This document shows, one piece after another, positions 9,947 to 64,000 of a stretch of 64,000 nucleotides of DNA. The stretch's first letter is position 1. The number at the start of each line of letters is the position of its first letter. Source of the DNA: Bacteroidales bacterium (GTDB lineage: Bacteria > Bacteroidota > Bacteroidia > Bacteroidales > VadinHA17); the NCBI GenBank assembly GCA_049975425.1, contig JBNGDI010000007.1, forward strand, positions 10,431 to 74,430, given 5' to 3'. Below the pieces are notes generated by a model. It worked only from the letters and a program-made list of their open reading frames with translations, searched no databases and was not told the origin of the DNA. The position numbers and the translations under genes were made by a program.

Positions 9947-11479
9947 ATGACGGAAATATCGAAAATCGAGCTGAGGAACCTCCGGCTGAGTGATTACTAC
10001 GAGCTGAAGGAATCGATGATCGAAGCTTACAGGAACTGGGAAGGATCGTACTGGAAAGAACATCATATCAGGAAGCTGCTGGAAATTTTCCCGAAAGGTC
10101 AAATCTGCATCATCGCCGACGGCAAAGTAGTAGGCAGTGCTCTTTCTCTTATTGTACGGTATGATGATTTTGGCGATGACCATACCTACCGGCAGATCAC
10201 CGGGAACTACACATTCTCAACACATAATCCACGGGGGGATATTCTTTATGGTATTGATGTATTTATCCATCCGGAATACCGGGGGCTAAGGCTGGGAAGA
10301 AGACTTTATGAAGCACGCAAGGAATTATGTGACCAGCTCAATCTGAAGGGCATCCTGATGGGGGGACGTATTCCCGGTTATCACCGGTACGCCGATAATC
10401 TGAGTCCGAAGGAATATATTGAAAAGGTCAAACTGAAGGAAATCCACGATCCGGTGCTGAGTTTTCAGCTTTCAAACGATTTCCATGTAAAAAAGGTGCT
10501 CAGGGGGTATCTGTCGGGGGACAAGGAATCGAAAGAGTATGCCACCCTCCTGGAATGGAACAATATCTATTACACCAGCAAGCAGAAATGGTACAAACTT
10601 CCCAAAACCACCGTCAGGTTGGGGCTGGTACAATGGCAGATGCGTCATTTCAGAAATCTTGACGGTTTATATGAACAGATTGAATTCTTCATAGATGCCG
10701 TATCGGGATATAACAGCGATTTCATTTTGTTTCCCGAATTGTTCAACGCTCCCCTGATGGCAGATTACAATCACCTGACAGAAGCGGAGGCCATCAGGGA
10801 ACTGGCAAAATACACAGAATCCCTGCGCGACAAATTCATTGAGTATGCCATTTCATATAATATCAATATCATCACAGGCAGTATGCCGTTTATCAGAGAC
10901 AACAATCTGCTGAACATTGGATATGTTTGCCAGCGTGACGGTTCGTGTGATCACTATGAAAAACTGCACATTACTCCCAACGAGGAAGCATACTGGGGAA
11001 TGACAGGCGGTTCGAGAATCAGGGTTTTCGATACCGACAGCGGAAAAATCGGGGTGCTTATCTGCTATGATGTGGAATTCCCTGAATTGAGCCGGGTGAT
11101 GGCTGATGAAGGTATGCAGATACTCTTTGTCCCTTTCCTGACCGACACACAGAACGGATATTCAAGGGTAAGATATTGTGCACGGGCCAGAGCTATAGAG
11201 AACGAATGTTATGTAGCCATTGCAGGCAGTATCGGGAACCTCCCCAAGGTAAGCAATATGGACATTCAGTATGCTCAGGCAGCAGTTTTCACACCAGCCG
11301 ATTTTTCATTTCCCACCAACGGTTTAAAAGCCGAAGCCACCCCGAACACAGAAATGACCCTGATTGTAGATACCGATCTGGACCTGCTGAAAGAACTGCA
11401 CAATTACGGAAGCGTTCGCAACCTCAAGGACAGGCGGCTGGATCTGTATGAACTGAGACGGAGAGATCAAATCACCTGA
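9947..11479 (+). CDS. Bifunctional GNAT N-acetyltransferase / carbon-nitrogen hydrolase (nitrilase superfamily) protein
   Basis: 510 aa. The N-terminal GNAT-like region contains HPEYRGLRLGRRLY. The C-terminal nitrilase-superfamily region has FPELF (Glu) and the catalytic Cys motif GVLICYDVEFPE. Confidence 0.85.
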   Translation: MTEISKIELRNLRLSDYYELKESMIEAYRNWEGSYWKEHHIRKLLEIFPKGQICIIADGKVVGSALSLIVRYDDFGDDHTYRQITGNYTFSTHNPRGDILYGIDVFIHPEYRGLRLGRRLYEARKELCDQLNLKGILMGGRIPGYHRYADNLSPKEYIEKVKLKEIHDPVLSFQLSNDFHVKKVLRGYLSGDKESKEYATLLEWNNIYYTSKQKWYKLPKTTVRLGLVQWQMRHFRNLDGLYEQIEFFIDAVSGYNSDFILFPELFNAPLMADYNHLTEAEAIRELAKYTESLRDKFIEYAISYNINIITGSMPFIRDNNLLNIGYVCQRDGSCDHYEKLHITPNEEAYWGMTGGSRIRVFDTDSGKIGVLICYDVEFPELSRVMADEGMQILFVPFLTDTQNGYSRVRYCARARAIENECYVAIAGSIGNLPKVSNMDIQYAQAAVFTPADFSFPTNGLKAEATPNTEMTLIVDTDLDLLKELHNYGSVRNLKDRRLDLYELRRRDQIT

Positions 11480-26076: not shown

Positions 26077-28716
26077 CTACAGACGGCGTGCCAGGACACA
26101 GGTTTTTTTAAGCTTCTTTACACGACCATTCAGATCAAATACTTCAATATAAAACACATAGATTCCCATACCGGCCTGAGAACCGTTTTCCATCCTTCCA
26201 TCCCATGATATCCCACCCTCCGTACCCATCAAATGGTTCCGTACCAGTCTTCTAACTTCCCGGCCACGGGCATCATAAAGGGTAATACTGGCAACATAAC
26301 CGGGCTCGGGCATATGGTAATACAGGTTGACCACATCATCTATCCCATCGTTATCAGGAGAGAACACTTCCGGTTCAACAACAAATTCTTCCTCCAGAGA
26401 ACTTATTTCACTGAACTGCGAATTCACCATCCCAGGAGTTCCGTATCCAGCTGTTTCGGAAGCTGAATGCCAGTTGGATGCATCGTTCGCGGGTCTGTCA
26501 TAATGCACTCTTTCCAGAGAAACCCCCTCAAACTTTCTTAACAGGGGAAAATGCATATCTTCGGTGTACCTGAATTCATCAATAACCTGCATTTTTTGAT
26601 TCAACAGAACGACTATGCCTTCCGTATCGGGCAAAGAGGGCAGGTTTTCCACACAGACAAAAGCCTTTTGATCATGGTAATAATACCTGCCGATCACGCT
26701 GGACGGGTCTATGGTGAATACCTTATACTCTCCCGGAAAAACCAGTTCTCCCTCAGACACCCTGAAAACCTGGTTAAGTTCCCCGTCGTCCTTGTTTCTG
26801 CTGGCAAGATATGTGGCACCCAGATCATATACCCGGTCTGATCTGTTATATATCTCCACAAAATCGGGTTCGTCAGGAAACGGATTGAAAAGCACTTCAT
26901 TTATTACCATATCTCCGGGCAGTATCATTTCAGGAACAGCAACTCTGGTTCCGGCAAAATTGGCTGCAGGGTTACCGGCACAATCGGTAAGGGAATCCTT
27001 AAATGTCAGTAAATAAATTACTCCCGTTCGCAGGGTATCACGAAAAAACAGTTCAACACGGTCGTATGCAGGGAAATATGCATTGGCAGAAAAAGGAGAG
27101 CCGAACTCATGATCCAACCTGTAATTTGCCGTATCGATAGCCCGTAATGAATCCATCGGCTCAGAAAATTCCACCATGAACTGACTCCCTCCGGTGAATT
27201 TTAAGCGTTTTGCCACAGGCCTTTCCATGTCAGGAAAATTGCCCGCCACTGCATTCTCCCTGCCCGGTGTCCCTCCCGAATAATCTGTACTTGTCATCCA
27301 GTTTCCGCAAGGATCACATGGGTTGGACGGATCTACCCTTTCTAGTGCCCACCCTCCTTGTGTTTTATATGATTCTGAATGCCAGCTCGGATCATACCTT
27401 ACATAAGTAATCAGGCGTCCGTCAGGTGAGCAGAGGAATATTTCTCCTCCTGCATTATTCAGGGCGGGAAAGCCGGGTATCCCGAGCACATTCCCGTACA
27501 CTGCGAATTCACCGGCATAAAACATATCCGCAAGAATAAGATATTGCCCCGGATCCATGGTAACAGACGGCAGTTCAACCCTGGTTGTTCCGGTAGACAA
27601 TATCCAGTTGTAAAGATCCTGTTTGTGCTCACTACGGTTAAATATTTCTATATACTCGGCCTGGGGAAGAAGAACCCGGGGAACAGGATCATACATAATT
27701 TCATTTATTACTACATCCTGAAACGAAGGCTCAAGATATACAAATTCAGCTTGGGCAGGCAGCATCATGTTTCCTGATAAATCCGCTAATCCTTCTATAT
27801 TAAGCAGGTATTCGGCATTCTGCTCAAATACAGAAGAAAAATACAGAAGCAGTTCATGGCCTCGTGCCAGGAAAACGGAATCAGGTGAACCAATTCCATC
27901 AACCATATAATGCCATGGATCAACTGCTTCACCTTCTTCAATATCTTCAGAAAAGATCAGCCGCAGGGTGTTACGGTCAACCACAACCAGGCTATCCAGA
28001 ACAGGTGGCAGGGTATCGGGAATAAACCGACCGGTGATGGAAATGTCATCCATCCATAACTTCATATCCTGGGCTTTGGTATACTTATATCTAATACCAA
28101 AATACCTTCCTGGTTTATCTATTCTGTAAAAACCACTCCCCACATTTTCAACAGAAGAAAAGCTGCCTGCCGAATCAATTCTGACTTGCCAAATTCCACC
28201 CGGAAAATATTCCACCTCCACAGCGGGTGCTGCCTGTATGCCGATACCGGTTTCCCAGTTCACTGAAGTGGCAAGAATTTCCTGATATTTTCCATCATTC
28301 AAATGCCAGAGTTTCAAAAGTTTGTCGGTTCCCTGAACATTTACTCCCAAAACATATCCATTGATTTGATCGGTAGTGCCCATGTATTTTGCCCAGCGGT
28401 TGGCCAGGAGAAAAACTCCCCAGTTGTTATATGACGAAGGACCGTATCCGTGCCGGATACGAAATCGCCACACTGCACCTGAGCTATCGGGAAACAGGGG
28501 GTCTGTAAGTAAGGATATGGCATCGATAGATGCTTCTGAATTGTCATAAGCATGATGAAGGGAAAAATTGCCTGAAACAGGTTCTACGGAAGAAATTTCC
28601 CATCGGTTTGGCAGATAGGATTCCCAGAACACAAGATCCTCCGTCTCAAAATCATAAAACACCTGTGCACCTGCCGGAAGGGAAAAAGAAAAAAATATCC
28701 AGAGGATCTTTCTCAT
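26077..28716 (-). CDS. Secreted multidomain protein with two lamin-tail-domain (LTD) modules and a C-terminal FlgD-Ig/T9SS-like beta-sandwich
   Basis: Signal peptide MRKILWIFFSFSLPAGAQ. Two LTD signatures, VINEIMYDP...EYIEIFN and VINEVLFNP...DFVEIYN. The C-terminus has FSPDNDGIDDV...GIYVFYIEV. Confidence 0.8.
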   Translation of the reverse strand: MRKILWIFFSFSLPAGAQVFYDFETEDLVFWESYLPNRWEISSVEPVSGNFSLHHAYDNSEASIDAISLLTDPLFPDSSGAVWRFRIRHGYGPSSYNNWGVFLLANRWAKYMGTTDQINGYVLGVNVQGTDKLLKLWHLNDGKYQEILATSVNWETGIGIQAAPAVEVEYFPGGIWQVRIDSAGSFSSVENVGSGFYRIDKPGRYFGIRYKYTKAQDMKLWMDDISITGRFIPDTLPPVLDSLVVVDRNTLRLIFSEDIEEGEAVDPWHYMVDGIGSPDSVFLARGHELLLYFSSVFEQNAEYLLNIEGLADLSGNMMLPAQAEFVYLEPSFQDVVINEIMYDPVPRVLLPQAEYIEIFNRSEHKQDLYNWILSTGTTRVELPSVTMDPGQYLILADMFYAGEFAVYGNVLGIPGFPALNNAGGEIFLCSPDGRLITYVRYDPSWHSESYKTQGGWALERVDPSNPCDPCGNWMTSTDYSGGTPGRENAVAGNFPDMERPVAKRLKFTGGSQFMVEFSEPMDSLRAIDTANYRLDHEFGSPFSANAYFPAYDRVELFFRDTLRTGVIYLLTFKDSLTDCAGNPAANFAGTRVAVPEMILPGDMVINEVLFNPFPDEPDFVEIYNRSDRVYDLGATYLASRNKDDGELNQVFRVSEGELVFPGEYKVFTIDPSSVIGRYYYHDQKAFVCVENLPSLPDTEGIVVLLNQKMQVIDEFRYTEDMHFPLLRKFEGVSLERVHYDRPANDASNWHSASETAGYGTPGMVNSQFSEISSLEEEFVVEPEVFSPDNDGIDDVVNLYYHMPEPGYVASITLYDARGREVRRLVRNHLMGTEGGISWDGRMENGSQAGMGIYVFYIEVFDLNGRVKKLKKTCVLARRL

Positions 28717-47517: not shown

Positions 47518-50500
47518 ATGAGTGAAGAAATCCTGAAAGCCCTGATGCAGTTGTTTGCTCTGATCGTGAAACAGGATGGTGGCGTTGAACAGAGTGAAAG
47601 AAATTATGTTCTTGGATTTCTTACCAGTCAGCTCAATGATGAAGATGCCAGTGATTATATCCGGTTATTTGATGAATATGCCGGAATTGGTGACGGCCGC
47701 ATCCCATCGAAGGAAAACATCCCAACCACAGTAAAGGATTCTGTAAGGATCCTGAGCATTTGTAAAAAAATCAACCGTACCCTTACCCAGGAGCAGAAAG
47801 TGGTGGTTCTGGTAAGACTGTATGAACTGGTCAACACCGATAAGAAGTTCACCGAGCAGCGAATGAATATCATCAATACTGTGGCAGAGGTTTTCAGATT
47901 CACCAGGGAAGAGTTCACGGACATTGAACATTTTGTGAAGGAAGGGCAGCTTGAGCAGGTCGCATCGGAAAATATCATGCTGATATCAGGAAAAGATATG
48001 GATTGCCCACGTTGCAGGCATATTCGCGTTGAGTCGCTTCCCGGAACCCTTGCTGTGCTCCGGATATCCAGTGTTGACCTGTATTTCCTGAAAGTTTTTC
48101 CCGGCCACGAAGTATCGTTGAACGGTCTGCCTGTCACTCCAAACCGCATTTATCTCCTGGCCCATGGAAGCGTTATTCGCATGCCGATGGGCAAACCGGT
48201 ATATTACAGCGATATTGTTGCACATTTCTACTCCGATGTATCACGGGAGAAGATATCCTTTCAGGTAAATAATCTGACCCACGTTTTCCAATCTGGAGAA
48301 ACTGCCCTTCATCAGATATCTTTTGCTGAAGAAGAAGGGAAGCTCATTGGGATCATGGGCGCCAGCGGGACCGGAAAAACCACTCTGCTGAACATAATGG
48401 CAGGAATGGAAATCCCTACTTCCGGAGAGGTCAGGATCAATCAGATAAATCTCCACCGTGAAAAAGATAAAGTTCAGGGTATCCTGGGGTATATTCCTCA
48501 GGACGATCTGCTGATTGAGGACCTTACCGTTTTTGAAAACCTGTATTATAGCGCCCGGCTGTGTTTCAGCAACTTGTCTGAAAAAGAAATCACCCGCCGG
48601 GTATTCCAAACGCTTCATAACCTGGGATTATATGAGAAAAAAGACCTCAGGGTAGGATCACCCATGAACAAGGTGATTAGCGGAGGGCAGAGAAAACGAT
48701 TGAATATTGCACTGGAACTGATCAGAGAACCTCTCATTCTGTTTGTTGATGAACCCACGTCCGGATTGTCATCAAGAGATTCCGAAAATGTCATGGACCT
48801 GCTTCGTGAACTTTCCCTGAAGGGAAAACTAATCTTCGTAGTAATCCATCAGCCTTCCTCTGAATTGTTTAAAATGTTCGACAATGTTCTGGTTCTGGAC
48901 CAGGGCGGTTACATGGCATATTACGGCAATCCTGTGGAGGCGGTAATATATTTTAAAACGCAGGATGCTCAGATTAACAGGGATATTGGCGAGTGTCCTG
49001 TATGCGGAAATGTGAATCCCGAGCTAATATTCACCATCATGGAATCACAGGTGGTGGATGAGTTTGGACGATATAAAGACAAACGCAGAGTAACCCCGGA
49101 AAAATGGGAAAAACGTTTCAGGGAACATCACAGCCCACAGCCTGTTGAAGAAGTGGTTAAAATTCCCGCCTCACGTACCAGCCTGCCCGGAAGACTAAAA
49201 CAATTTTTTATTTATCTGATCAGGGATGTGAAATCGAAAATTGCCAATCGGCAGTATGTTGTCCTCACCCTGCTGGAAGCTCCGGTGCTTGCCCTTATAC
49301 TTTCATATATAACCAGATATATTGCCGATCCGAATTCACAGGAATATATTTTCCGGGAAAATGAGAATATTCCCATCTATATTTTCATGAGCCTGATTGT
49401 TGCTCTGTTTCTCGGACTTACACTCAGCGCGGAAGAAATTTTCAGGGACAGAAAACTGCTGAAACGTGAATCCTTTCTGAATCTCAGCCGTTTAAGTTAC
49501 CTGATGAGCAAAATTGTACTCCTTTTCAGTCTTTCAGCCATTCAAGCCCTTGTGTTTGTTCTTATCGGCAACAGTATACTGGGTATCCGCGACATGTATT
49601 TTGAATACTGGATGGCCTTTTTTACCACAGCAGCCTTTGCCAATATGCTGGGTTTAAATATTTCCGCCTCCTTTAATTCGGCTATCACCATTTACATCAT
49701 TATTCCGTTGCTGATCATTCCCATGATGGTGCTAAGCGGCGCCATGTTCAGTTTCGACAAACTGAACAGGAATATATCCGGCGTCGGGGAGGTCCCTGTA
49801 ATCGCAGAATTGATGGCAACGAAATGGAGCTATGAGGCCCTCATGGTTCACCAGTTTACCGGTAATAAGTATGAGCGTCTGCTGTACGATGTGGAAAAGG
49901 ATGAAAGCAATACGTATTTCAAATCTGTGGAATATATCCCCTTTTTACAGCAAATACTCAATAAAACGATAACGGCAATGAATCAACCGGAATTGCGTGA
50001 AGAATACACCCGGTATTTGCTGTTACTTAAAAATGAAACCGAATCGGAGCTTGAAATTAACCCTGATATCCCCTTTGCCTCGGCCGGACAGTTACACCCT
50101 GATTCCTTCCGGATAGAAACTGCCATTCTGACCAGAGAATACCTGAACAATCTGAAGGAACATTATGCCAACCTGAGCCGGCAGGCAAGTTTCCGCAAGG
50201 AAAAACTCATGGAATATTACGACCGGCAGGATCCGGACCTTTTCCGTGAATTGCGTAAAAACTATCACAATGAAAGTGTTGCGGATATCGTACGAAATGT
50301 ATATGAACGCCATCCAGTCCTGGTTTACAAGAACCGGGTGGTCAGGCAGTATGAACCGGTCTTTTTTGATCCTGAACCTTCAGGTTACCTGGATTTCAGG
50401 TCGCATTTCTATGCTCCCAGAAAATTCTTTATGGGGAAATACCGTAATACTTTTCACTTCAATATGGGGATTATCTGGATAATGAGCCTGATTTGTTATA

Positions 50501-50610
50501 TAACCCTGTATTTTGAGAGCCTGAAAAAAACAATTCAGTTCTTCGAATCTATCGGAACAAAAAAATTTAATCCGCTGGTATCTTTGGGTAAAATCAAAAT
50601 ATTTCATTAA
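47518..50610 (+). CDS. ABCG-like (NBD-then-TMD) ABC transporter with an N-terminal TerB-like repeat and an FHA-like domain
   Basis: Walker A GASGTGKTT, signature ISGGQRKR, Walker B ILFVDEPTSGLS. An ABC-2-type membrane domain spans about residues 590-790. A soluble region of about 200 aa and one final hydrophobic helix follow. The N-terminus has LMQLFALIVKQDGGVEQSER (TerB-like) and LRISSVDLYFLKVFPGHEVSLNG...GSVIRM (FHA-like). Confidence 0.9.
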   Translation: MSEEILKALMQLFALIVKQDGGVEQSERNYVLGFLTSQLNDEDASDYIRLFDEYAGIGDGRIPSKENIPTTVKDSVRILSICKKINRTLTQEQKVVVLVRLYELVNTDKKFTEQRMNIINTVAEVFRFTREEFTDIEHFVKEGQLEQVASENIMLISGKDMDCPRCRHIRVESLPGTLAVLRISSVDLYFLKVFPGHEVSLNGLPVTPNRIYLLAHGSVIRMPMGKPVYYSDIVAHFYSDVSREKISFQVNNLTHVFQSGETALHQISFAEEEGKLIGIMGASGTGKTTLLNIMAGMEIPTSGEVRINQINLHREKDKVQGILGYIPQDDLLIEDLTVFENLYYSARLCFSNLSEKEITRRVFQTLHNLGLYEKKDLRVGSPMNKVISGGQRKRLNIALELIREPLILFVDEPTSGLSSRDSENVMDLLRELSLKGKLIFVVIHQPSSELFKMFDNVLVLDQGGYMAYYGNPVEAVIYFKTQDAQINRDIGECPVCGNVNPELIFTIMESQVVDEFGRYKDKRRVTPEKWEKRFREHHSPQPVEEVVKIPASRTSLPGRLKQFFIYLIRDVKSKIANRQYVVLTLLEAPVLALILSYITRYIADPNSQEYIFRENENIPIYIFMSLIVALFLGLTLSAEEIFRDRKLLKRESFLNLSRLSYLMSKIVLLFSLSAIQALVFVLIGNSILGIRDMYFEYWMAFFTTAAFANMLGLNISASFNSAITIYIIIPLLIIPMMVLSGAMFSFDKLNRNISGVGEVPVIAELMATKWSYEALMVHQFTGNKYERLLYDVEKDESNTYFKSVEYIPFLQQILNKTITAMNQPELREEYTRYLLLLKNETESELEINPDIPFASAGQLHPDSFRIETAILTREYLNNLKEHYANLSRQASFRKEKLMEYYDRQDPDLFRELRKNYHNESVADIVRNVYERHPVLVYKNRVVRQYEPVFFDPEPSGYLDFRSHFYAPRKFFMGKYRNTFHFNMGIIWIMSLICYITLYFESLKKTIQFFESIGTKKFNPLVSLGKIKIFH

Positions 50611-54414: not shown

Positions 54415-55317
54415 TTACCGCAGAAAGTTACCAAATTGATAAATCAGCATGATTTCATGCGAACCACTGCTTACGGTACGTATATCAGATAGAGAAGCAT
54501 CGTAGCAGTAACCTACCAGAAAAGGCCCATGATTATAACCGGCCATAATGGCAATGGCGTCACCTGTCCGGTAAGATATTCCCAGGGAAACCATTTCGCG
54601 GTACACAGCACGTACATTAATATCTGCCTGAAACTTCCCGGCCTCGATAAATTTCATCAGCAAGGACGGTTCCACTGCAAATTCCCCTCCGGTTTCAAAA
54701 CGGTATCCGCCGTGAAGGTAATAATGCCGAACCTGTCGCTGCTCCAGCAACCTGTCTGTCTGCAGATCCACTCTCCTTTCGAACAACTGAGGTATGGCCA
54801 GACCCACATAATAATTATCTCCGTAAAAATAGGCGCCAAACGATATATCCGGAACAACCATTTTATCGGTTGCCTCAGCCAGTACAAGATCATTGGGATC
54901 TTCCAGGTTCAATGTGCCCACATCAAGAAAATACTGATAAATTAAACCCGACAAACCGAAAGCCAATGTCTGGTCGCCATCATTCAGAGGCAGATGATAG
55001 GCATAGGTAGCCTCAAAACCTGTACGACGCAATGGCCCTGCAGAATAATTAAACACTTTTGCCCCCACGCCCATATGATCGGCAACCTCCAGATGAGCCG
55101 AAAGATTCTGAATGGAAGGGGAACCTTCAAATCCCGCCCACAATTTCCGAAACGAGAATGCCAGGGGGAATCCTTCCTGACTTCCGGCTACAGCCGGATT
55201 AAGATCATACAAATGAAGCATATACTGACTGTTCTGTATCAATTGCTGTGCGCTGCAAGTTAGTGCAAACAGTCCGATGATAGCAATTAGCAGTAATTTT
55301 CTCATGCTGCGGTACAT
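54415..55317 (-). CDS. PorP/SprF-family type IX secretion system membrane protein
   Basis: Signal peptide, then AQQLIQNSQYMLHLYDLNPAVAG, the hallmark N-terminus of PorP/SprF. Beta-barrel-like alternation follows. Its start abuts the stop of the upstream adhesin gene (55317/55318). Confidence 0.85.
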   Translation of the reverse strand: MYRSMRKLLLIAIIGLFALTCSAQQLIQNSQYMLHLYDLNPAVAGSQEGFPLAFSFRKLWAGFEGSPSIQNLSAHLEVADHMGVGAKVFNYSAGPLRRTGFEATYAYHLPLNDGDQTLAFGLSGLIYQYFLDVGTLNLEDPNDLVLAEATDKMVVPDISFGAYFYGDNYYVGLAIPQLFERRVDLQTDRLLEQRQVRHYYLHGGYRFETGGEFAVEPSLLMKFIEAGKFQADINVRAVYREMVSLGISYRTGDAIAIMAGYNHGPFLVGYCYDASLSDIRTVSSGSHEIMLIYQFGNFLR

Positions 55318-58300
55318 TTACTTGATAATACTTACCGTTCCTTTAAGCAGTTCATTGCCATCTCCATAAAGATCAATAATATAGTAATAGGTTCCTGATG
55401 GCAATTCCTTGCCGCCCGAACGCCCGTCCCATGGCTCGGGGTAGCCGGGCTCGGATTCATAAACAAGGCTACCCCATGCATTAAAAATCTTCACAACAAC
55501 GCCGGGATATTCCCATAATCCGTGAATAACCCAGGTATCGTTCGAACCGTCGCCGTTGGGGGTAATGGCGTCAAATATTTCAAACTCCTCAATGTGTATT
55601 TCTTCACTTAATACCGGACCGCAACCATTTACATCGTCCAGCTCAATCTGATATATCCCGGCTGTTAGTCCCGAAAACACACCGGTATTGTTTGAAGCCA
55701 GGGGTTCGGTACCGGTTTTCAGAATATAGGTATAAGGTTCGGTTCCTCCTGTTGCTGTAATGGAAATGGTATTCCCTTCAACCACAGGGTCCCCCAGAAC
55801 CAGCTCAGCAGGTTCCGAAACGGTGAGCATTCCCCCGTCTTCTTCACAACCTATGACATCACGTACCATCACATTGTAGTCACCTGCCGGCAGGCCGGTG
55901 AACTCACTTTCCAAAACCCATGTATTCCCCCCGTCAATCGAATATTCCAGAGGCTCCCGTCCGGAGGCGGTGATGCTGATGGTCCCGTCTGTTTCACCGT
56001 GACACGTGATATCGGTTACATCCACAGTGCTTATCGTAATACCCAGCGGATCAGTAAGTGAAAGCATGCTTCCGCTGGTTTCGCACCCGTTTGCATCCTT
56101 TACTTTTACCTGGTAGTTCCCCGAACAAAGTCCTGTAAATTCACCGGATATCTGCCAGGTGGATCCGTCATCAATAGAATACTCATAAGAAGGAGTGCCT
56201 CCCCCGGCCGAAAGCGAAATGGAACCAGTGCATTCGCCAGCACACTCCGGATCGGTAAATTCTTCCGAAACCATCACCAGCTCGGCTGGTTCTGTAATAG
56301 CTCCTTCAAAGGTTTCTGAACAGTTATTGGCATCGGTAATAAGAAGAGTATAATCACCGGCACATGCTCCGGTAAGGTTCTTGCTTGTTCCCACCAAACT
56401 GCCTCCTCCGTCATACCATTCATAGCTGTAAGGAGTAGTCCCTCCCGATACGGTCATGACAATGCTTCCGTCACAATCACCGAAACAATCCACATGATCA
56501 GGCACAGAGCTGTACTGAATGGCCGGGGGCTCTGTCACCGTATAGGGCCCGAACTGCCGTGAACAACCGTTTTCATCAGTAACGGTAACCCGATAGTTGC
56601 CGGCTTCAAGAAAACGGGCGGTAAGACTGGTTTGCGCAGCCGGATCGTCCCATTGCACACTCAGCAAACCAGTACCCCCTGAAACGGCAACGGTTAGCTC
56701 CCCCTCAAGGTCACCGTTACATGGGTTATTCACGGTAGAAACAAGATTACATGAAATTACCGGAGGCTGGTCAATAGGAATGTTGTTCACTTCAGCCGTA
56801 CAGCCATTGGCATCGGTTACCGTTACAGAATAATTACCGGGACAAAGTCCTGCAACATCCTTGCTGGTGGAGGTGAATCCGGAAGGTCCAACCCATGCAT
56901 AGCTGTAAGGAGGAGTACCTCCGGAAACCAGTGTGAGATCAATTTTCCCGTTACAGGAACCATAACAGGTAACATCTGTTTTATTGTAAGTTATGGAAGG
57001 CAGGCTGGAAGGTTCATCAATGGTCACCTGAACGGTGGAGGGAGAACCGGGGGGTGTTCCGTCATCAGTAACAGTTACTGCATAGGTGCCGGCCGGAGCA
57101 TCAAGCAGTTCATGGGTGGTACTTACCACCAGTCCGCCGGGCACGGTAGTCCATTCATAAGTCAGGCTCCCCACGGCATTTTCCGTACAGACCCTGGCGT
57201 ATCCGTCATTCCCTCCATAACACGATACATCGTTCTGCTCACATATATAAGCAAAAAACAGATATCCGTCGTCAACAGTGATGATGGTATCTGCCGTACA
57301 TGTATTCGCATCGGTTACCGTTACGGAATAATTACCTGCATCACAAAGGCTGGTCAGGTCTTCATCGGTGGAAGTAAAGCCCGATGGACCAGACCAGGAA
57401 TACGCATAACCGGGTGTGCCACCGTTCACCTGCAGATCAATGGCTCCGTTGCATCCGGCTGGCAGGACAATATCCGTTACAGAAGTCCCTTCAAAGGTAA
57501 TCGGAAGAGGTTCATTCACTGAAAAATTCTCCACACCTGTACATCCATTGCCATCCGTTACTGTAACAGAATAATCACCGGCTGTCAGTCCTGTTTGGTC
57601 TTCAGTCTCGGTACTGACCCCCTCTCCTGTCCAGGCAAAGGCATAAGGAGGGGTTCCTCCGCTTACGGTAATATCAATGGCCCCGTTGTTGCCTCCGTAA
57701 CAGCTGACATCAGTAATGTCATATGCGATAGTGACAGGTTCTGGCTCTAAAATTTCAATGTTGACCACTTCCGTCGAATCCCGCACATCTTTTACAGTAA
57801 CCGTATAATCTCCGGCTGCCAGGCCGGTAGCAATGGAATCGTTCAGCATGGCATCATGACTCCATTCATACGTAAAAGGATATACACCAAAGTAAGGTGT
57901 AACAATGATTTCGCCGTCAGACCCCCCGTTACAGGTAACATCCTGTTTGTGCGAAATTGCTACAGAAAAGCCATACTCATAATGGGCTACAAAACCCATA
58001 TACATCGTGGGGTTGGGATTTGACAATGAAAACTCCCCGATTTCAAGGGGATTGGAACGTGAGCGTCCAATAATCAGGGTTTGTCCGTTCTGGTCATAGG
58101 CTACACCCTGTCCTTCATCATGTTCGGTTCCCCCGATACCCTGTCCTCCAACCGGATTACCGTTGCGGTCGAAAATAGCAAACCCTGTGTTCACGTCAGT
58201 GGGCCCGCTGCTCCTCAGGGTATCCTGATTAATCACCAGTTCATCTGCATACATACCGGCAAACTGGACCATTTCCTGAAAAATAGCCAGGCCGTAAGCA

Positions 58301-59412
58301 TTGTCAGCATTGGGAGTTCCTTCCCTTCTGACCCATTGCAACGTTCCCGATGAGCTGTATTTACAGATATAGAAATCAACGCCCCCGATAGAAGCCAGTG
58401 GTTCAGCACTTAAAGTAGCAGTACTGTCAAATACAATGGGATCCGATTCTGTCTTTCCTGAAATATACAAATTACCATATTTACTTATTGTAGAAGAGTT
58501 TACATGGTCAAAAGCCGGGCCCCCTGCCGTTCTTCCCCATATATAATTGAGGTTATCGTCTACACGCATCAGCATAATATCCATAAAGGCAACATCCCCT
58601 GTAGAAGTGGTAAACAAAGTGTTTTCCCCTCCGTCCTGCAACTCCCCCAGGATATCACCGGTTATATAATACCCTCCGAAAAGGCAGGGGTGAACCCTCC
58701 TGAAGGCAGATTGCTGTATAGTAGGGATAAACCTGCTGATAGCCTGGAAACTGCCGGCAGTATCGTATTTGGCGATAAACAGGTTTTTGTTTCCTGTAAA
58801 GGGGAGGGTACCGCCTGTACCCCCGTCATCATAGTAGAAGGGATCGGATTTATAATTGCCGATAATAACCATTAAATCATCCTTGAAATCTATGTCCTGC
58901 AACCGGTCATTGTGATTACCCCAGAACAACCTTTTTGCCCATACAATCGTACCATCGGGCTTATATTTTGCCACAAAGGGCTCCCATCTGCCAGAGGTGG
59001 AGTTGTTCAGTACCACATTCTCGGCGGGATTTGTTGATTCAATGGTAACAGAAGCCCCTTTGAATGCACCTACTACGTAAACATGTCCGCTCTTGTGAAT
59101 TCTGAAACTACCAATCTCATCGTCATCTGCCCCTCCACACCCAACGATCCACAAAATATTTCCATTTTCATCGAATTTAGCCAAAAAAGCATCCTGACTT
59201 CCATAAGAATTCAAATCCTGGGACTGAACTGTAAGAGGGGTCCCTCCCTCCCATGTCCCTGCTACATAAACATGATTGTTGGCATCTGTTTGTATATGTA
59301 CCGTGCCGACATCACCGGAAGCAGTGAATTGTTCAGTCCATGACCATTTTTGCGCGGTCAGATGAAGACTGAAACAAATAAATAATCCGATAGCCAGTGA
59401 AAAAGTTCTCAT
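55318..59412 (-). CDS. Giant cell-surface protein: N-terminal beta-propeller-like repeats, about 10 SprB-type repeats, and a C-terminal gliding-motility (type B) T9SS sorting domain
   Basis: 1364 aa with a signal peptide. The Cys-containing repeat DV(T/S)C.G..(D/N)G.I...V.GGT.PY.Y.W recurs. The C-terminus AITPNGDGSNDTWVIHGL...GTYYYIIDL matches the CHU_C/type B CTD pattern. Confidence 0.9.
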   Translation of the reverse strand: MRTFSLAIGLFICFSLHLTAQKWSWTEQFTASGDVGTVHIQTDANNHVYVAGTWEGGTPLTVQSQDLNSYGSQDAFLAKFDENGNILWIVGCGGADDDEIGSFRIHKSGHVYVVGAFKGASVTIESTNPAENVVLNNSTSGRWEPFVAKYKPDGTIVWAKRLFWGNHNDRLQDIDFKDDLMVIIGNYKSDPFYYDDGGTGGTLPFTGNKNLFIAKYDTAGSFQAISRFIPTIQQSAFRRVHPCLFGGYYITGDILGELQDGGENTLFTTSTGDVAFMDIMLMRVDDNLNYIWGRTAGGPAFDHVNSSTISKYGNLYISGKTESDPIVFDSTATLSAEPLASIGGVDFYICKYSSSGTLQWVRREGTPNADNAYGLAIFQEMVQFAGMYADELVINQDTLRSSGPTDVNTGFAIFDRNGNPVGGQGIGGTEHDEGQGVAYDQNGQTLIIGRSRSNPLEIGEFSLSNPNPTMYMGFVAHYEYGFSVAISHKQDVTCNGGSDGEIIVTPYFGVYPFTYEWSHDAMLNDSIATGLAAGDYTVTVKDVRDSTEVVNIEILEPEPVTIAYDITDVSCYGGNNGAIDITVSGGTPPYAFAWTGEGVSTETEDQTGLTAGDYSVTVTDGNGCTGVENFSVNEPLPITFEGTSVTDIVLPAGCNGAIDLQVNGGTPGYAYSWSGPSGFTSTDEDLTSLCDAGNYSVTVTDANTCTADTIITVDDGYLFFAYICEQNDVSCYGGNDGYARVCTENAVGSLTYEWTTVPGGLVVSTTHELLDAPAGTYAVTVTDDGTPPGSPSTVQVTIDEPSSLPSITYNKTDVTCYGSCNGKIDLTLVSGGTPPYSYAWVGPSGFTSTSKDVAGLCPGNYSVTVTDANGCTAEVNNIPIDQPPVISCNLVSTVNNPCNGDLEGELTVAVSGGTGLLSVQWDDPAAQTSLTARFLEAGNYRVTVTDENGCSRQFGPYTVTEPPAIQYSSVPDHVDCFGDCDGSIVMTVSGGTTPYSYEWYDGGGSLVGTSKNLTGACAGDYTLLITDANNCSETFEGAITEPAELVMVSEEFTDPECAGECTGSISLSAGGGTPSYEYSIDDGSTWQISGEFTGLCSGNYQVKVKDANGCETSGSMLSLTDPLGITISTVDVTDITCHGETDGTISITASGREPLEYSIDGGNTWVLESEFTGLPAGDYNVMVRDVIGCEEDGGMLTVSEPAELVLGDPVVEGNTISITATGGTEPYTYILKTGTEPLASNNTGVFSGLTAGIYQIELDDVNGCGPVLSEEIHIEEFEIFDAITPNGDGSNDTWVIHGLWEYPGVVVKIFNAWGSLVYESEPGYPEPWDGRSGGKELPSGTYYYIIDLYGDGNELLKGTVSIIK
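55700..57950 (-). repeat. Coding tandem array of about 10 SprB-type repeats (period about 80-95 codons) inside the adhesin gene; boundaries approximate
   Basis: The recurring C.G...G.I...(V/A)SGGT.PY.Y(.)W motif was read in the translation. The DNA copies have diverged. Confidence 0.7.
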
Positions 59413-59521
59413 ACAGTATATTTTTTCATAGGATGGTCAAATTGATGTATTTTTGAAAAGTCAAAATGGGGGAAAAATATAAGGTGTATACCTTTTTGAA
59501 AATGTGTATAGATCCATTTGT

Positions 59522-60553
59522 ATGCATTCTGTAGTACCCAAATTTACAAAATTATTTAAACATCAAAGCTTTTCATGCAATAACATCATTAAATTGAAAA
59601 AAAAAACCTGCTTGATACATGTCCACCTGGGGCCGTTGCCTGAATGGTTTCAACTATTTCTGCTTACGGCTGCTGCAAACCCACAATACCACTGGCTGAT
59701 TTTCACTGAACAACCTGTTTCTTCAACCTTTCGTGAAAATATCAGTACAAAGGTGCTGACAAGGAAGGAGCTGGAAACCTTAGTCCATAAAAAAACAGGA
59801 ATTGCCGTCAGCCTGTCTAACCCCTATAAGGTATGCGACCTGAAACCATTGTTCGGTCTCTTGTTTGAAGAGCACCTCCAATCCTTTTCATGGTGGGGTT
59901 ACTGCGATAACGACATCATTTTTGGAAGGATGGACCATTTCCTGAAACCCGAATGGTTTGACCAGTACCAGATCATAAGCACCTATTCGGGCTATTTATC
60001 CGGCCCCCTGACATTCTATAGGAATACACCAGGTATTAAGCGGCTCTTCACACGTGTGCCGGCATGGGAAAGTATCATCAAAAATCCATCCTGCCAGGGT
60101 TTTGATGAAAATCTGAGGGGCCATCCTGCCGGAAAAACTCTGGCTGATATTCTTCTTTTCCCCTTCCATATTCCGGAAATCATCGCATCAGATACATATT
60201 TCCTGCCGGCCAAAAAAGAAATATTGCACCAGTATCACTGGAGAATAAAAAAAAGGCAGGCAGGGAAACACCGGTTGTACGATATGACAGATATCGCTCA
60301 TGTTATGGAAAAATCCCAAAAAAAAACCGTGTTATTTACCAGTCTCCTGGCTTCCGACATATATTTCGAACGGACAGGATTAAAAAAATGGGAAATGGTA
60401 TGGGAACAAAGCTGCCTGACTGAAAAAATAACAGGTAAGGAAATGCTGGCCTTTCATTTCAGACAAACTAAAGCGGAGATGGGGGAAATTCCCTTTCCGA
60501 ACTGTCACAACCTGAATCGTTTCACCCTGACAAAAAAAGGATTTCATGTCTGA
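59522..60553 (+). CDS. DXD-motif protein, paralog 1 of 3 (putative GT-A-like glycosyltransferase of an uncharacterised family)
   Basis: Shares with its two neighbours HLGPLPEWF..FL.....NP...WLIFT.Q, NPYKVCDLKP.FG, WWGYCDNDIIFG, GFDEN and a C-terminal W.MVWE...L...FHF. The start is uncertain: GTG 59504, ATG 59522 or TTG 59594. Confidence 0.65.
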   Translation: MHSVVPKFTKLFKHQSFSCNNIIKLKKKTCLIHVHLGPLPEWFQLFLLTAAANPQYHWLIFTEQPVSSTFRENISTKVLTRKELETLVHKKTGIAVSLSNPYKVCDLKPLFGLLFEEHLQSFSWWGYCDNDIIFGRMDHFLKPEWFDQYQIISTYSGYLSGPLTFYRNTPGIKRLFTRVPAWESIIKNPSCQGFDENLRGHPAGKTLADILLFPFHIPEIIASDTYFLPAKKEILHQYHWRIKKRQAGKHRLYDMTDIAHVMEKSQKKTVLFTSLLASDIYFERTGLKKWEMVWEQSCLTEKITGKEMLAFHFRQTKAEMGEIPFPNCHNLNRFTLTKKGFHV

Positions 60554-61535
60554 TGCCTTCCCCTCCATCGGAATTGTCATCACCTGGTTCGGCCCCTGGC
60601 CTCCATGGACAGAATATTTTCTTTTGTCCTGCCGGGCGAATCCTTCGGTCAATTGGATTCTCCTTTCAGATCAAGCGGTACCGGCAAACATACCCGAAAA
60701 TGTAAGGTACATCCCAATGAAAATATCGGAATGGATTCGAATGACGGAAAAAAGACTAAAATGCCGGATTCGTGTAAATCATCCGTATAAAATATGCGAT
60801 CTGAAGCCGGCCTATGGATATATTTTTTCAGAGTATCTTCAGGAATATGCTTTCTGGGGATACGGTGACATGGACCTGGTATATGGCAATTTCAGACGTC
60901 TGCTCTCTTCCTCTGAAATGGCTGCGGCTGATGTGATCTCAACTCATTCTGATTTCATCCCTGCACATCTTTGCCTCCTCAGGAACACGCAGGAGATAAA
61001 CACCCTTTTCACACTGGGAGGAAGATACAGACAGGTTTTTGCCCGCCCCGATTACATGGGTTTTGATGAAAATCTGTTGAGGTTCCCCGTCAGAACATCA
61101 TGGGAAGTCATTGATATAGACAAAAAAAAAGTACAACAGTGGGATCAAAAACGAACCAGAATAGCCCGGTCAAAATGGATCACTCCACTGAAAATAATAA
61201 GAAAACAACTGATTAAGCCCTTCAGAACCAATTCCGAATCGGTTCCCGGAGATTTTAATAAAATTCTGGATCAACAGCACTCAAAAGGAAATGTCCGGAT
61301 TAACAGGAAGACCCGTTTCGAATGCGATAACATGTACAAAAAACAGGGAATTACCCGGTGGAAAATCATATGGGAAAAAGGACAATTGATTTCTGAAAAT
61401 TTGGGAGAAAAAAGGGAACTGTTGTACTTTCACTTTATGCTGTCAAAACAAAATCCCAAATTTAAAATCCGGGTATCCGGAAAGAATACCGGTTCATTTG
61501 TGATTTTTCCTGAAGGAATAAGACCCGTTTCATAA
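60546..61535 (+). CDS. DXD-motif protein, paralog 2 of 3
   Basis: WFGPWPPWTEYFLLSC..NP.VNWILLSDQ, HPYKICDLKPAYG, WGYGDMDLVYG, GFDEN, WKIIWEKGQL...LLYFHF. The ATG overlaps the stop region of paralog 1 by 8 nt. Confidence 0.7.
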   Translation: MSDAFPSIGIVITWFGPWPPWTEYFLLSCRANPSVNWILLSDQAVPANIPENVRYIPMKISEWIRMTEKRLKCRIRVNHPYKICDLKPAYGYIFSEYLQEYAFWGYGDMDLVYGNFRRLLSSSEMAAADVISTHSDFIPAHLCLLRNTQEINTLFTLGGRYRQVFARPDYMGFDENLLRFPVRTSWEVIDIDKKKVQQWDQKRTRIARSKWITPLKIIRKQLIKPFRTNSESVPGDFNKILDQQHSKGNVRINRKTRFECDNMYKKQGITRWKIIWEKGQLISENLGEKRELLYFHFMLSKQNPKFKIRVSGKNTGSFVIFPEGIRPVS

Positions 61536-62458
61536 TGAACCTGCGAATTCTGATCGTACACTTTGGTCCATGGCCGTCCTGGATACCGTATTTTCTTCAA
61601 ACCTGCGGATGGAATTCCCGCATTGACTGGTTGATCTTCACAGATCAACCCCTTCCCCGGAATTGTCCCCCCCATGTTATCATGCATCAAATCAGCCTGC
61701 AAGCATTTGGCGAAATACTGTCCAGCCACTTTAACATATCCGTTTCTATTCATAATCCCTATAAAATATGTGATTACCGGCCGGCTTTCGGAGAAATTTT
61801 CAAACAATGGCTGAATGGCTATGATTACTGGGGATATTCAGACCTGGACCTGGTGTACGGGAACGTATTCCCGTTCATTGAACCTCATATGAAAAGGAAA
61901 ACAGACATAATCGGGGTCAGAGAACAATACCTCGCCGGTCATTTTGCCCTTTTCAGAAACACACCGGAAATCAGTTCATTATATAAATTGTATCCCCATT
62001 ACTTGCAAGTTTTTTCAGATACCCGGCACCATTATGGTTTTGATGAAAAATCCAGTCTGATCGGGAAAAAACTGAAACATCCCGGCGAGACCCATTTAAG
62101 GCACCTGTGTTCAAGGTTGCTGGAAAAACCCATCCGTAAAATCAAATTTAAAAAGGCCTCGATTTCTGCCGGAGAGAACAGGGATCTGGATCAGATTTCA
62201 AAAAATATGGCCCGCCAGGGTAAAATCTCTTTGTTCAGAAAAGACATGGTAAGGTCGGACCTATGGTACAGAAAGAAGCATATTCCTGATTGGGAAATTG
62301 TCTGGAAGAATGGAAAATTGATTGACAAAAAAACAGACGAAGAGCTTCTGCACTTCCACTTTATTAAATCAAAAAACACGAAATGGTTCCACCCTGAACC
62401 CTGGCGTGAAAACAGTGGTTTCCGGATCAACCGGAAGGGAATCCATATTCAGGAATAA
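61535..62458 (+). CDS. DXD-motif protein, paralog 3 of 3
   Basis: HFGPWPSWIPYFLQTC...IDWLIFTDQ, NPYKICDYRPAFG, WGYSDLDLVYG, GFDEK, WEIVWKNGKL...LLHFHF. The start overlaps the stop of paralog 2 (TAATG). Confidence 0.7.
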   Translation: MNLRILIVHFGPWPSWIPYFLQTCGWNSRIDWLIFTDQPLPRNCPPHVIMHQISLQAFGEILSSHFNISVSIHNPYKICDYRPAFGEIFKQWLNGYDYWGYSDLDLVYGNVFPFIEPHMKRKTDIIGVREQYLAGHFALFRNTPEISSLYKLYPHYLQVFSDTRHHYGFDEKSSLIGKKLKHPGETHLRHLCSRLLEKPIRKIKFKKASISAGENRDLDQISKNMARQGKISLFRKDMVRSDLWYRKKHIPDWEIVWKNGKLIDKKTDEELLHFHFIKSKNTKWFHPEPWRENSGFRINRKGIHIQE

Positions 62459-63357
62459 AAACTATACCTTTGTAAAAATCCATAGAGTTTTATTTTCTCC
62501 TCAACCTGCTGGATTAATTCAGGAGTCCACCGGATCAATTCACGGCTCCGGTGCGGTTTATCATAAACAATGGCAGCACAGGATGACAGGTAGTCAGATG
62601 AGGCCTCCAGCCCAAGAAAGTTTATCAGCTTCGTTAATTCTTTTTCCGGACAGGCAATAAAATCTTCATGGTACACATCAATAATTTCATGTTGCGATTT
62701 TCCCCTGAACCCATTCACAGCCTCAACCCTGTTGAAAAAGGCAGAAATGGATGGGAGCAATTCTTCCGGATCTGCATTTTCCGTCCAGGCATTTTGTTTT
62801 TCAAGTCTTCTTCGGGTCATGGTAGTTATGATATCAAATGGATTCCTGATAACATGGATCCATTTAATGGGATATCCCAATGATTTTTTCATCCTTTCTA
62901 TCACTGATGGATCCTCCTGTATCAGAAGAGATGTCCTGCCTCCCAGTTTATCACCTATTACACGGATCTGTTGGTAACGTCCCTGCCATTGACCCTCCAC
63001 CCTGTATGAATAACCGGTCCATGTATTGTTTTCCTTTTTTCTGAATTGACGGCTGTTATTAACAAGGGAATAAATAATCTGATTTTTGTTGTACCCCATT
63101 CCCAGATGGGGTAAAACTCCCCACTCCATCCCCATGACCACTTCCGGATGGGCGTCCAGTAAGGCGGCAATCAGGCTGTGCCCGCTGCGTGGATAACCAA
63201 TGAACATACAAAAGTTTTTAATATGTGAATATTGGTCCCGTTTCATCCGGCCCATGGCAAAGGAATGCATATAGGCCAGAATGAATCGTAACTTTCTTAT
63301 TATTCTGTATATAAAGTAATTCATTGACAAAAATCTTCCATTTATTTTCCGGAACAA
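62449..63357 (-). CDS. Sulfotransferase-family protein
   Basis: 5'-PSB-like loop IGYPRSGHSLIA, 3'-PB-like IHVIRNPFD, and YHEDFIACPEKELTKLINFLGL (the typical YEDL..DP......FLG tail). Its 3' end overlaps paralog 3 convergently by 10 nt. Confidence 0.8.
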   Translation of the reverse strand: MFRKINGRFLSMNYFIYRIIRKLRFILAYMHSFAMGRMKRDQYSHIKNFCMFIGYPRSGHSLIAALLDAHPEVVMGMEWGVLPHLGMGYNKNQIIYSLVNNSRQFRKKENNTWTGYSYRVEGQWQGRYQQIRVIGDKLGGRTSLLIQEDPSVIERMKKSLGYPIKWIHVIRNPFDIITTMTRRRLEKQNAWTENADPEELLPSISAFFNRVEAVNGFRGKSQHEIIDVYHEDFIACPEKELTKLINFLGLEASSDYLSSCAAIVYDKPHRSRELIRWTPELIQQVEEKIKLYGFLQRYSFYS

Positions 63358-64000
63358 CCCAGGTGAAATGCTAATTTATCATTCCATCTTCTTAAATGAT
63401 AGGCCATCCGCTTCATAGCAAGTGCCCTTTTTTGCCGGATATCCTGTTTCCCCCACCCTGTTAATACATACCCCAATTGTTTCAGCCATCTGCCTGACAG
63501 ACATTCCATAGCTGTAATTTCTTCCGGTTTCAACAAACTAACCCATTGATCAATCTTGTCACAGTCAGGCTTCTCCGGGATACTCCGGTGAATTGTTTTC
63601 ATTTCAACAGACATTCTTTCATATAGGTCACCCTGGCTGTTCTCATCCCACGAGCCGTCAATGCCCAGTATTTCCTCTAACCTGTGCAAAATAATTTGTT
63701 GATCACGTATAAATGATTCAAAAAAAATAATCTGTACCAAACCCCGGGCCACCAGTTTTGACGATTTCCTGACAAACCGGTTCCAATCAAGAGCCGTTTT
63801 GACTGGATCTATGCTCATCGGCTCATTCCCGGGTAACATGGGGGTTCTTTTTTGCGACTCGTATATGGCACGAACATCCCGGATCAGAACCAGAGGATGA
63901 AATACCATTCCTGTATGAGCAGCTTTACTTATTTTACCAAAAAGATATAATAATCGCTCCGCCTTGAAAAGCACTAGTGTGGCACCAGGTTTTACCTCGT
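63342..64000 (-). CDS. Second sulfotransferase-family protein, N-terminus beyond the window edge
   Basis: The frame is open to position 64000 (...EVKPGATLVLFKAER). It has LIRDVRAIYES (3'-PB-like) and FFESFIRDQQIILHRLEEILGI. The PAPS-binding P-loop is expected upstream, outside the window. Confidence 0.6.
   Translation of the reverse strand, partial: EVKPGATLVLFKAERLLYLFGKISKAAHTGMVFHPLVLIRDVRAIYESQKRTPMLPGNEPMSIDPVKTALDWNRFVRKSSKLVARGLVQIIFFESFIRDQQIILHRLEEILGIDGSWDENSQGDLYERMSVEMKTIHRSIPEKPDCDKIDQWVSLLKPEEITAMECLSGRWLKQLGYVLTGWGKQDIRQKRALAMKRMAYHLRRWNDKLAFHLGCSGK

Follow-up and report, generated by a model that had tools for sequence, protein, structure and literature searches.

The 64,000-nucleotide stretch of Bacteroidales bacterium DNA analyzed here (the window; contig JBNGDI010000007.1 of assembly GCA_049975425.1, positions 10,431 to 74,430 of the forward strand) carries a row of three tandem, same-strand genes, hereafter paralogs 1, 2, and 3, whose products all belong to the protein family DUF6625 (Pfam PF20330). 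Our study argues that these three proteins are very likely glycosyltransferases (GTs) of the GT-A type. We further propose, with less certainty, that they are probably cytoplasmic, metal-dependent enzymes that attach successive sugars to a lipid-linked glycan, which is sulfated afterwards. Paralogy, family membership, motif conservation, the predicted fold, the conserved gene cluster, and purifying selection are directly supported. A first-pass annotation of this DNA had proposed DXD-containing GT-A glycosyltransferases, and the proposal was supported: both AlphaFold (AF2) models retrieved only GT-A enzymes among their best 50 matches in the Protein Data Bank (PDB).

The three proteins are true but old paralogs. 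BLASTP aligned them over essentially their full length, with 27% identity between paralogs 1 and 2 (E 4e-41), 29% between 1 and 3 (E 8e-47), and 31% between 2 and 3 (E 1e-54), and the three copies share no meaningful similarity at the nucleotide level. Against a gathering score of 27 bits, PF20330 was matched with 164, 195, and 192 bits by paralogs 1, 2, and 3, respectively (E 8e-48, 2.4e-57, and 3e-56), the match of paralog 3 covering profile positions 1 to 246 of 267; 33/33 aligned relatives match the same profile. The earlier guess of an uncharacterized DUF family seen in polysaccharide loci thus proved right, the family being DUF6625. Each of the motifs listed at that time was also found in all three proteins, i.e., GP(W/L)PxW...FL, (N/H)PYK(V/I)CD(L/Y)(K/R)P, WGYxDxD(I/L)(I/V)(F/Y)G, GFDE(N/K), and W(E/K)(M/I)(V/I)W...FHF, paralog 1 carrying the versions NPYKVCDLKP, WWGYCDNDIIFG, GFDEN, and AFHF. 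The family is large (4,874 clusters at 50% identity, E<=1e-3; at least 589 loci matched in a genome scan) and ranges over Bacteroidota, Pseudomonas/Stutzerimonas, Azoarcus/Thauera, Desulfobacterales, and metagenome-assembled genomes (MAGs) labeled Woesearchaeota or Saccharibacteria. Literature searches found no paper mentioning DUF6625 or PF20330, NCBIfam gave no model for these proteins and no relevant match, an exact-sequence look-up of paralog 2 returned no record, and the NCBI source annotations of relatives go no further than "hypothetical protein" or "DUF6625 family protein".

The structure prediction that the first-pass annotation had suggested as a check recovered a GT-A fold with the DXD motif placed after a β-strand. 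The AF2 model of paralog 2 is confident throughout (predicted local distance difference test score, pLDDT, 93.0; predicted template modeling score, pTM, 0.90), and that of paralog 1, modeled from its TTG start (pLDDT 83.8; pTM 0.83), is of low confidence only at insert residues 175 to 223. For both models, the best 50 Foldseek matches against the PDB were all GT-A enzymes of the retaining families GT6 and GT8 (E 3e-6 to 1e-4, probability 1.0). Paralog 2 matched GT6 and GT8 (LgtC) at E ~2.5e-5 (probability 1.0), and the top matches of paralog 1 were GT6 ABO transferases and GT8 glycogenin. The matched structures include ABO GTA/GTB, α3GalT, and BoGT6a for GT6, and LgtC, glycogenin, LARGE1, and an Anaerococcus GT8 for GT8, while a viral-structure library returned a GT32-type "sugar-binding region", GT8, GT34, DUF616/TOD1, Fringe-like, and other nucleotide-diphospho-sugar transferases. 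In the paralog 2 model, the secondary structure runs β1-α-β2-β3-α-α-β4-DXD-β5, and the DXD (D108-M-D110) stands directly after strand 103-107 and before strand 111-113, which in this model is the canonical GT-A position. A single Rossmann-like α/β/α GT-A nucleotide-binding core is thus predicted in DUF6625, to which the family adds a basic helical insert (81 to 96 residues, of which 16 to 24 are Lys or Arg) and a C-terminal β-rich part.

Conservation was assessed over 123 DUF6625 sequences from 84 sources (the window and 83 fetched loci, numbered with an L below), with paralog 2 numbering. K82, D85, P88, D108, D110, G114, and E175 are 100% conserved; C84, N52, N147, and W104 reach 98%, D174 and K301 97%, and H296 88%, and all of these residues are retained in all three window paralogs. 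The DXD motif is therefore invariant across the 123 relatives, and no homolog turned up in an already characterized family with a different activity.

Several observations weigh against a glycosyltransferase assignment. The Foldseek TM-scores are low (0.23 to 0.40, normalized to the query), and ~150 to 220 core columns align at modest root-mean-square deviation (rmsd), longer alignments having an rmsd of at least 8, so that DUF6625 resembles the GT-A core only. At the sequence level, a Pfam scan of 33 DUF6625 members at E<=10 gave DUF6625 and noise and no GT model, PF01501 (Glyco_transf_8, the GT8 family) included; sequence and profile searches of PDB sequences at E<=10 gave no match; and hhalign of DUF6625 was not significant, either with LgtC (E 0.14, probability <1%) or with a purpose-built 34-sequence GT8 profile (E 0.23, probability 0.3%), the sole local alignment, itself not significant, placing the DUF6625 DXD on LgtC D103-x-D105. 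Nor did sequence place the family in GT6, Foldseek identities being 8 to 14%. Finally, no experimental study of any DUF6625 member was found in the literature. The absence of well-known GT signatures had been noted at first reading, and it extends to comparisons of profile against profile. Hence, we assign the proteins to the GT-A type because of their predicted structure and gene context, the sequence signature being undetectable. As the GT8 sequence and profile comparisons are not significant, DUF6625 is a separate family, best described as standing outside GT6 and GT8 with a predicted GT-A core of its own.

The three genes make up one operon: they lie on the same strand, their stop and start codons overlap, and no terminator lies between them. 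Junction 1 reads ...ttcATGtcTGAtgcc, with the ATG of paralog 2 lying inside the 3' end of paralog 1, whose TGA closes an 8-nt overlap (ATGTCTGA); junction 2 reads tcaTAATGaac, a 1-nt overlap (TAATG) of paralogs 2 and 3. The tandem arrangement and the 8-nt and 1-nt overlaps described earlier thus agree with the open reading frame list and the junction sequences, and the three genes are presumably coupled in translation through reinitiation. Moreover, the 3' end of paralog 3 shares 10 nt with the convergent sulfotransferase gene, and overlaps of 4 to 17 nt occur at most gene junctions in L001 to L003. The size range of 307 to 349 amino acids (aa) given earlier stands for paralog 3 (307 aa); the value of 349 aa belongs to a GTG start of paralog 1 at 59504, while the start that had been noted, the ATG at 59522, gives 343 aa. 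A third candidate, TTG at 59594 (319 aa), would align the N terminus of paralog 1 with those of paralogs 2 and 3. The start of paralog 1 is uncertain because neither paralogs 2 and 3 nor the more distant position-1 ortholog of L001, whose called gene is shorter (279 aa), have anything corresponding to its 24 to 30 additional residues at the N terminus; L004 retains the extra region at 96% nucleotide identity and is therefore uninformative. In the divergent intergenic region upstream of the operon, TATTTTTG at 59448-59455 fits TAnnTTTG, which we take to be the Bacteroidetes -7 promoter consensus; a scan for sigma-70 promoters and terminators gave nothing above chance.

The earlier description of the array as a triplication is misleading, since the genes represent three old ortholog groups kept by position in about a dozen full-triple loci. 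A hidden Markov model search of the fetched loci found three tandem DUF6625 genes in the window and in about a dozen Bacteroidales-type MAGs (L001 to L011, L016), two in L013 to L022 and L054 as well as in L028, L058, and L068, which are not of the window type, and one elsewhere. In a neighbor-joining tree, positions 1, 2, and 3 form three separate clades, with mean identities of 36 to 43% within and 27 to 34% between clades, and loci with two DUF6625 genes carry clades 1+2 or 1+3. A recent local triplication was rejected, as each position has its own clade and the copies lack meaningful nucleotide similarity. The residue directly before the DXD is clade specific (Cys at position 1, Gly at position 2, Ser at position 3), as would fit specificities that differ for donor or acceptor. 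The closest genome is that of L004 (Bacteroidetes bacterium SpSt-1193), with a nucleotide identity of 91% over 13.4 kb; against it, the ratios of nonsynonymous to synonymous substitution rates (dN/dS) are 0.13 for paralog 1, 0.29 for paralog 2, and 0.22 for paralog 3, and all three are therefore under purifying selection. Clades, pre-DXD residue, and dN/dS favor three separate functions, rather than redundancy, as the probable reading.

That at least one copy is catalytically dead or redundant, with only one functional, strikes us as extremely improbable. Related genomes do manage with one or two DUF6625 copies, and paralogs 2 and 3 are far more diverged from L004 (78% and 76% amino-acid identity) than paralog 1 (95%), but the family-invariant residues are intact in all three copies and each gene position is a conserved ortholog group. 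The dN/dS values together with the raised synonymous divergence point to recombination or mosaicism rather than decay, and pseudogenization of paralogs 2 and 3 was rejected on account of their dN/dS (0.22 to 0.29) and intact motifs.

The comparison with L004 is itself mosaic. The flanking genes and paralog 1 keep 92 to 97% protein identity, with synonymous divergence (dS) of 0.13 to 0.18, versus 76 to 79% for paralogs 2 and 3 and sulfotransferase 2, the diverged genes having a dS of 0.45 to 0.68; in the N-terminal part of the SprB-type gene upstream of the operon, nucleotide identity falls to 83 to 88%. The diverged stretches of the window (57500-59400, 61000-62500, and 63500-64000) suggest recombination or allelic exchange in surface-related genes.

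The neighborhood analysis that had also been suggested as a check revealed a glycan-related block conserved in Bacteroidales. It recurs in three metagenomic contigs, whose orthologs are 39 to 42% identical to paralog 2, and in ~25 species-representative Bacteroidales MAGs. Upstream, on the minus strand, stand DUF6427, purD, in some loci PorP/SprF, and a gene for an SprB-repeat protein of a type IX secretion system (T9SS); the middle holds one to three DUF6625 genes on the plus strand; and downstream, again on the minus strand, follow one or two Sulfotransfer_3 genes, two GT4 genes (Glycos_transf_1), a Polysacc_deac_1 gene of carbohydrate esterase family 4 (CE4), and a gene for a ~1000-aa TMEM260_N/DUF8416/TMEM260_2 protein of the GT-C type. 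In some loci an extra DUF1972-type GT4 is added downstream, and L003 adds a PMT_2 gene; in L001 the block is followed by a Lipid_A_deac gene. The window ends within the second sulfotransferase gene, and the part of the cluster beyond position 64000 was read from L001 (11916-20988), L002 (11932-20788), L003 (11015-20107), and L004 (11904-18231). Sulfotransferase 1 adjoins DUF6625 in every window-type locus whose DNA reaches past the DUF6625 genes (Table 1). One further point weighs against the proposed role in a lipid-linked glycan, namely that L001 to L003 carry no initiating phosphoglycosyltransferase, flippase, polymerase, or exporter in the cluster, which looks like a set of enzymes elaborating an acceptor made elsewhere.

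Table 1. The DUF6625 operon and other features of the window (positions count from the first nucleotide of the window)
Feature	Coordinates	Strand	Remarks
DUF6625 paralog 1	59522..60553	+	Position-1 ortholog group; PF20330
DUF6625 paralog 2	60546..61535	+	Position-2 ortholog group; 329 aa; PF20330
DUF6625 paralog 3	61535..62458	+	Position-3 ortholog group; 307 aa; PF20330
Intergenic stretch separating the SprB-type gene (-) from the divergent DUF6625 operon (+)	59413..59521	.	Candidate promoter only
SprB-repeat cell-surface protein	55318..59412	-	1364 aa; CHU_C type-B T9SS signal; context only
PorP/SprF-family outer-membrane partner of type-B T9SS cargo	54415..55317	-	Pfam PorP_SprF E 4e-68; context only
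Sulfotransferase 1	62449..63357	-	302 aa; convergent with the DUF6625 operon; Sulfotransfer_3 E 2e-14
Sulfotransferase 2	63342..64000	-	C-terminal 218 codons, open to the window edge; ortholog of the 323-aa Sulfotransfer_3 protein in L001 to L004
Second T9SS-type surface protein	26077..28716	-	879 aa
TerB/ABC transporter-type protein	47518..50610	+	1030 aa

The product of the SprB-type gene, divergent from the operon, matches the Pfam SprB repeat in 8 stretches (E 3e-74) and CHU_C (E 1e-22), and its adjacency to DUF6625 is kept in ~25 loci. The housekeeping gene purD is equally syntenic, and the adjacency to the adhesin gene is therefore no evidence of a functional link and was rejected as such. 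Of the glycan or protein-glycosylation locus proposed at first reading, the glycan part thus gained a conserved polysaccharide-type cluster, whereas the link to the T9SS adhesin is one of synteny only, shared by purD.

These neighbors nevertheless raise the alternative that the GT-A enzymes act on protein or peptide, either modifying the adjacent SprB-type adhesin or building an oligosaccharide that the TMEM260-like GT-C transfers to periplasmic or surface proteins. The SprB-type protein is the divergent neighbor in every window-type locus whose DNA reaches that side, and the ~1000-aa TMEM260_N/TMEM260_2 protein stands at the cluster end; human TMEM260 is a protein O-mannosyltransferase for the immunoglobulin (Ig)-like IPT domains (PMC10214176). 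Searches of the literature on DUF2723/TMEM260 found eukaryotic work only and no study of a bacterial homolog, and purD and DUF6427 share the synteny of the adhesin gene, whose adjacency may reflect inheritance and not function. Moreover, T9SS cargo pass the inner membrane by way of Sec in an unfolded state, which, with DUF6625 proteins that have no signal peptide, speaks against the adhesin being glycosylated directly in the cytoplasm. Altogether, we consider action on protein or peptide unlikely in the window. A specific form of it, in which the DUF6625 triple (from a hitherto unrecognized family of retaining GT-A glycosyltransferases), the sulfotransferases, the GT4s, the CE4 enzyme, and the bacterial TMEM260 homolog would constitute an undescribed pathway building a sulfated oligosaccharide and attaching it to the Ig-like repeats of the SprB-type adhesin, is distinctly doubtful; if true, it would be a bacterial counterpart of the TMEM260-dependent O-glycosylation of IPT domains.

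The relatives of DUF6625 in other bacteria bear on the same question. About 17 proteobacterial loci (Pseudomonas, Stutzerimonas, Azoarcus, Thauera) hold a single DUF6625 gene inside a lipopolysaccharide (LPS)-core-type cluster, together with a WaaP-like kinase, a carbamoyltransferase, GT4s, a hexapeptide acyltransferase, a WaaL-like ligase, and MsbA; an example is L026 3855-15708 (Stutzerimonas kunmingensis), and others include L025, L061, L072, and L077. This clade groups with the window position-2 clade in the neighbor-joining tree, a weak grouping given very divergent sequences. A different subclade (~18 loci in Flavobacteriia, Chitinophagia, and Sphingobacteriia) has a C39-peptidase ABC exporter as a neighbor, together with thioredoxin-like or VKOR proteins, and in Flavobacterium/Chryseobacterium small genes for peptides with a double-glycine (GG) leader stand <2 kb upstream of DUF6625. 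Some members of the Flavobacteriia/Chitinophagia subclade, near C39 exporters and GG-leader peptides, may thus glycosylate peptides, which would favor a peptide acceptor, but this peptide-linked subclade is a branch apart from all three window clades, and clade 2 groups with the LPS-core-type genes. In view of these varied contexts, DUF6625 behaves like a typical GT family recruited to varied acceptors.

The leader-peptide reading frames lie at L030 8232-8471, L065 8133-8378, L048 8087-8323 and 8539-8736, and L043 9582-9800, and one is also present in L037; the DUF6625 genes of these peptide loci lie at ~9986-10828, and an example of a leader peptide is MQKLKTTKMSLANIEGKLTLEEMENVMAGSG/FLTSCAGAS...QWGASCR. 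By analogy, the Flavobacteriia-type layout may represent an undescribed class of glycosylated bacteriocins in Bacteroidota; literature searches on glycocins in Bacteroidota and on Bacteroidetes O-glycosylation transferases found nothing relevant to DUF6625. Rare DUF6625 fusions (P0159, 1294 aa; P0160, 519 aa; P0167, 791 aa) show three kinds of N-terminal partner, namely a nonribosomal peptide synthetase-like AMP-binding/peptidyl carrier protein/thioesterase module (A-PCP-TE), leucine-rich repeats, and a weak GT2 match, the latter seen in one relative at E 1e-4, under the Pfam cut-off.

Returning to glycosyltransferases acting on a lipid-linked glycan, we infer enzymatic activity, metal dependence, retaining stereochemistry, a lipid-linked acceptor, an order of action, and the final glycan as follows. 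The three DUF6625 proteins have no signal peptide or transmembrane segment (maximum Kyte-Doolittle 19-mer, 1.23) and are strongly basic (net charge +10 to +19), and they would therefore be cytoplasmic, acting probably at the membrane surface; the basic helical insert and the net charge agree with a peripheral attachment to the membrane. A divalent metal binding the diphosphate of the nucleotide-sugar donor would be held by the DXD (D108/D110 in paralog 2), probably together with the C-terminal His of (F/Y)H(F/L), and the donor and acceptor site would be lined by the FDE motif and the PYKxCD(L)(K/R) helix. Since the nearest structural neighbors are GT6 and GT8, a retaining mechanism (alpha-linkage) is the best guess. 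On the inner face of the cytoplasmic membrane, the three enzymes would extend a lipid-linked oligosaccharide by three sugars, different or successive, the acceptor being possibly an LPS-core-like or an undecaprenyl-linked glycan. The two GT4s, the two 3'-phosphoadenosine-5'-phosphosulfate (PAPS)-type sulfotransferases, and the CE4 deacetylase of the cluster could further build and decorate this glycan. Because the conserved cluster supplies GT4s, sulfotransferases, and CE4, a surface glycan carrying sulfate would result.

A GT-A-like fold could also serve a nonclassical activity, either the synthesis of polyprenyl-phosphate sugars for the GT-Cs of the cluster or a Stealth/Xpt1-like transfer of sugar-1-phosphate to a phosphodiester-linked glycan. 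Such GT-Cs (the TMEM260-like protein and, in L003, PMT_2) would need polyprenyl-phosphate-sugar donors while the cluster holds no GT2-type synthase, an enzyme working at an interface would be well served by the basic amphipathic insert, and the weaker viral fold matches include a Stealth protein (rank 50). However, the closest folds are those of the Leloir retaining families GT6 and GT8 and not of GT2 synthases of the DPM1/GtrB type, the proteobacterial LPS-core clusters with DUF6625 have no GT-C apart from WaaL, and it would be unusual to find three paralogous synthases of carrier sugars side by side. We thus hold a nonclassical activity to be very unlikely.

If classical glycosyltransferase activity is confirmed, DUF6625, for which we found no literature, would gain a function and may deserve a place in glycosyltransferase classifications. 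The cluster of the window would also become a tractable case for how uncultured Bacteroidales make sulfated surface glycans, the sulfated glycans of bacteria being poorly understood, as are bacterial TMEM260 homologs. On present evidence, a GT-like DUF in a glycan locus is expected in both gene kind and place; what lifts the case above routine is the lack of data on DUF6625, its conserved association with sulfotransferases and with a bacterial homolog of TMEM260, and the glycocin-like side lead.

Two other genes of the window were noted in passing. The second T9SS-type surface protein combines a Lamin Tail Domain and Big_5 with a weak CHU_C match, and the 1030-aa protein unites an N-terminal TerB domain with an ABC ATPase and a membrane domain of the ABC-2 type, an unusual combination.

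Compared with known systems, DUF6625 shares features with two enzyme families and two kinds of gene cluster. GT6 (human ABO GTA/GTB, bovine α3GalT, Bacteroides ovatus BoGT6a) gave the best Foldseek E-values for both models and, like the predicted DUF6625 core, has a DXD-type GT-A core. GT6 enzymes carry an H-D-E motif with the catalytic Glu, which, compared by motif alone, resembles the invariant F-D-E of DUF6625; GT6 is without a C-terminal His metal ligand such as that proposed for DUF6625. With GT8 (LgtC, glycogenin), DUF6625 shares the predicted GT-A core with DXD at the end of β4, a C-terminal His followed by Lys (H296-x4-K301 in DUF6625 versus H244-x5-K250, invariant in the GT8 alignment), and a mid-chain acidic pair (FDE versus D188-Q189), parallels drawn by motif from LgtC and the invariant columns of the GT8 alignment. 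Unlike GT8, DUF6625 has a (Y/F)FGxxP β1 loop in place of DxxY, an extra PYKxCD motif, the basic helical insert, and the C-terminal β-rich subdomain, at a TM-score of ~0.3.

At the level of gene clusters, the sublancin glycocin locus of Bacillus (sunA-sunT-bdbA-sunS-bdbB) encodes SunS, a GT2 S-glycosyltransferase. A sublancin-like set of GG-leader peptide, thioredoxin-like protein, glycosyltransferase-like protein, and C39-ABC exporter is found with the Flavobacteriia/Chitinophagia DUF6625 subclade only; the DUF6625 genes of the window are without such neighbors, and the transferase would be DUF6625 and not a GT2. In the enterobacterial waa outer-core operon, paralogous GT8 genes (WaaI/WaaO, WaaJ/WaaR, WaaT) stand side by side, and each adds the next sugar. 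As in waa, the proteobacterial DUF6625 genes lie in LPS-core clusters, and by this analogy the waa outer-core operon appears to be the closest functional analogue of the DUF6625 triple.

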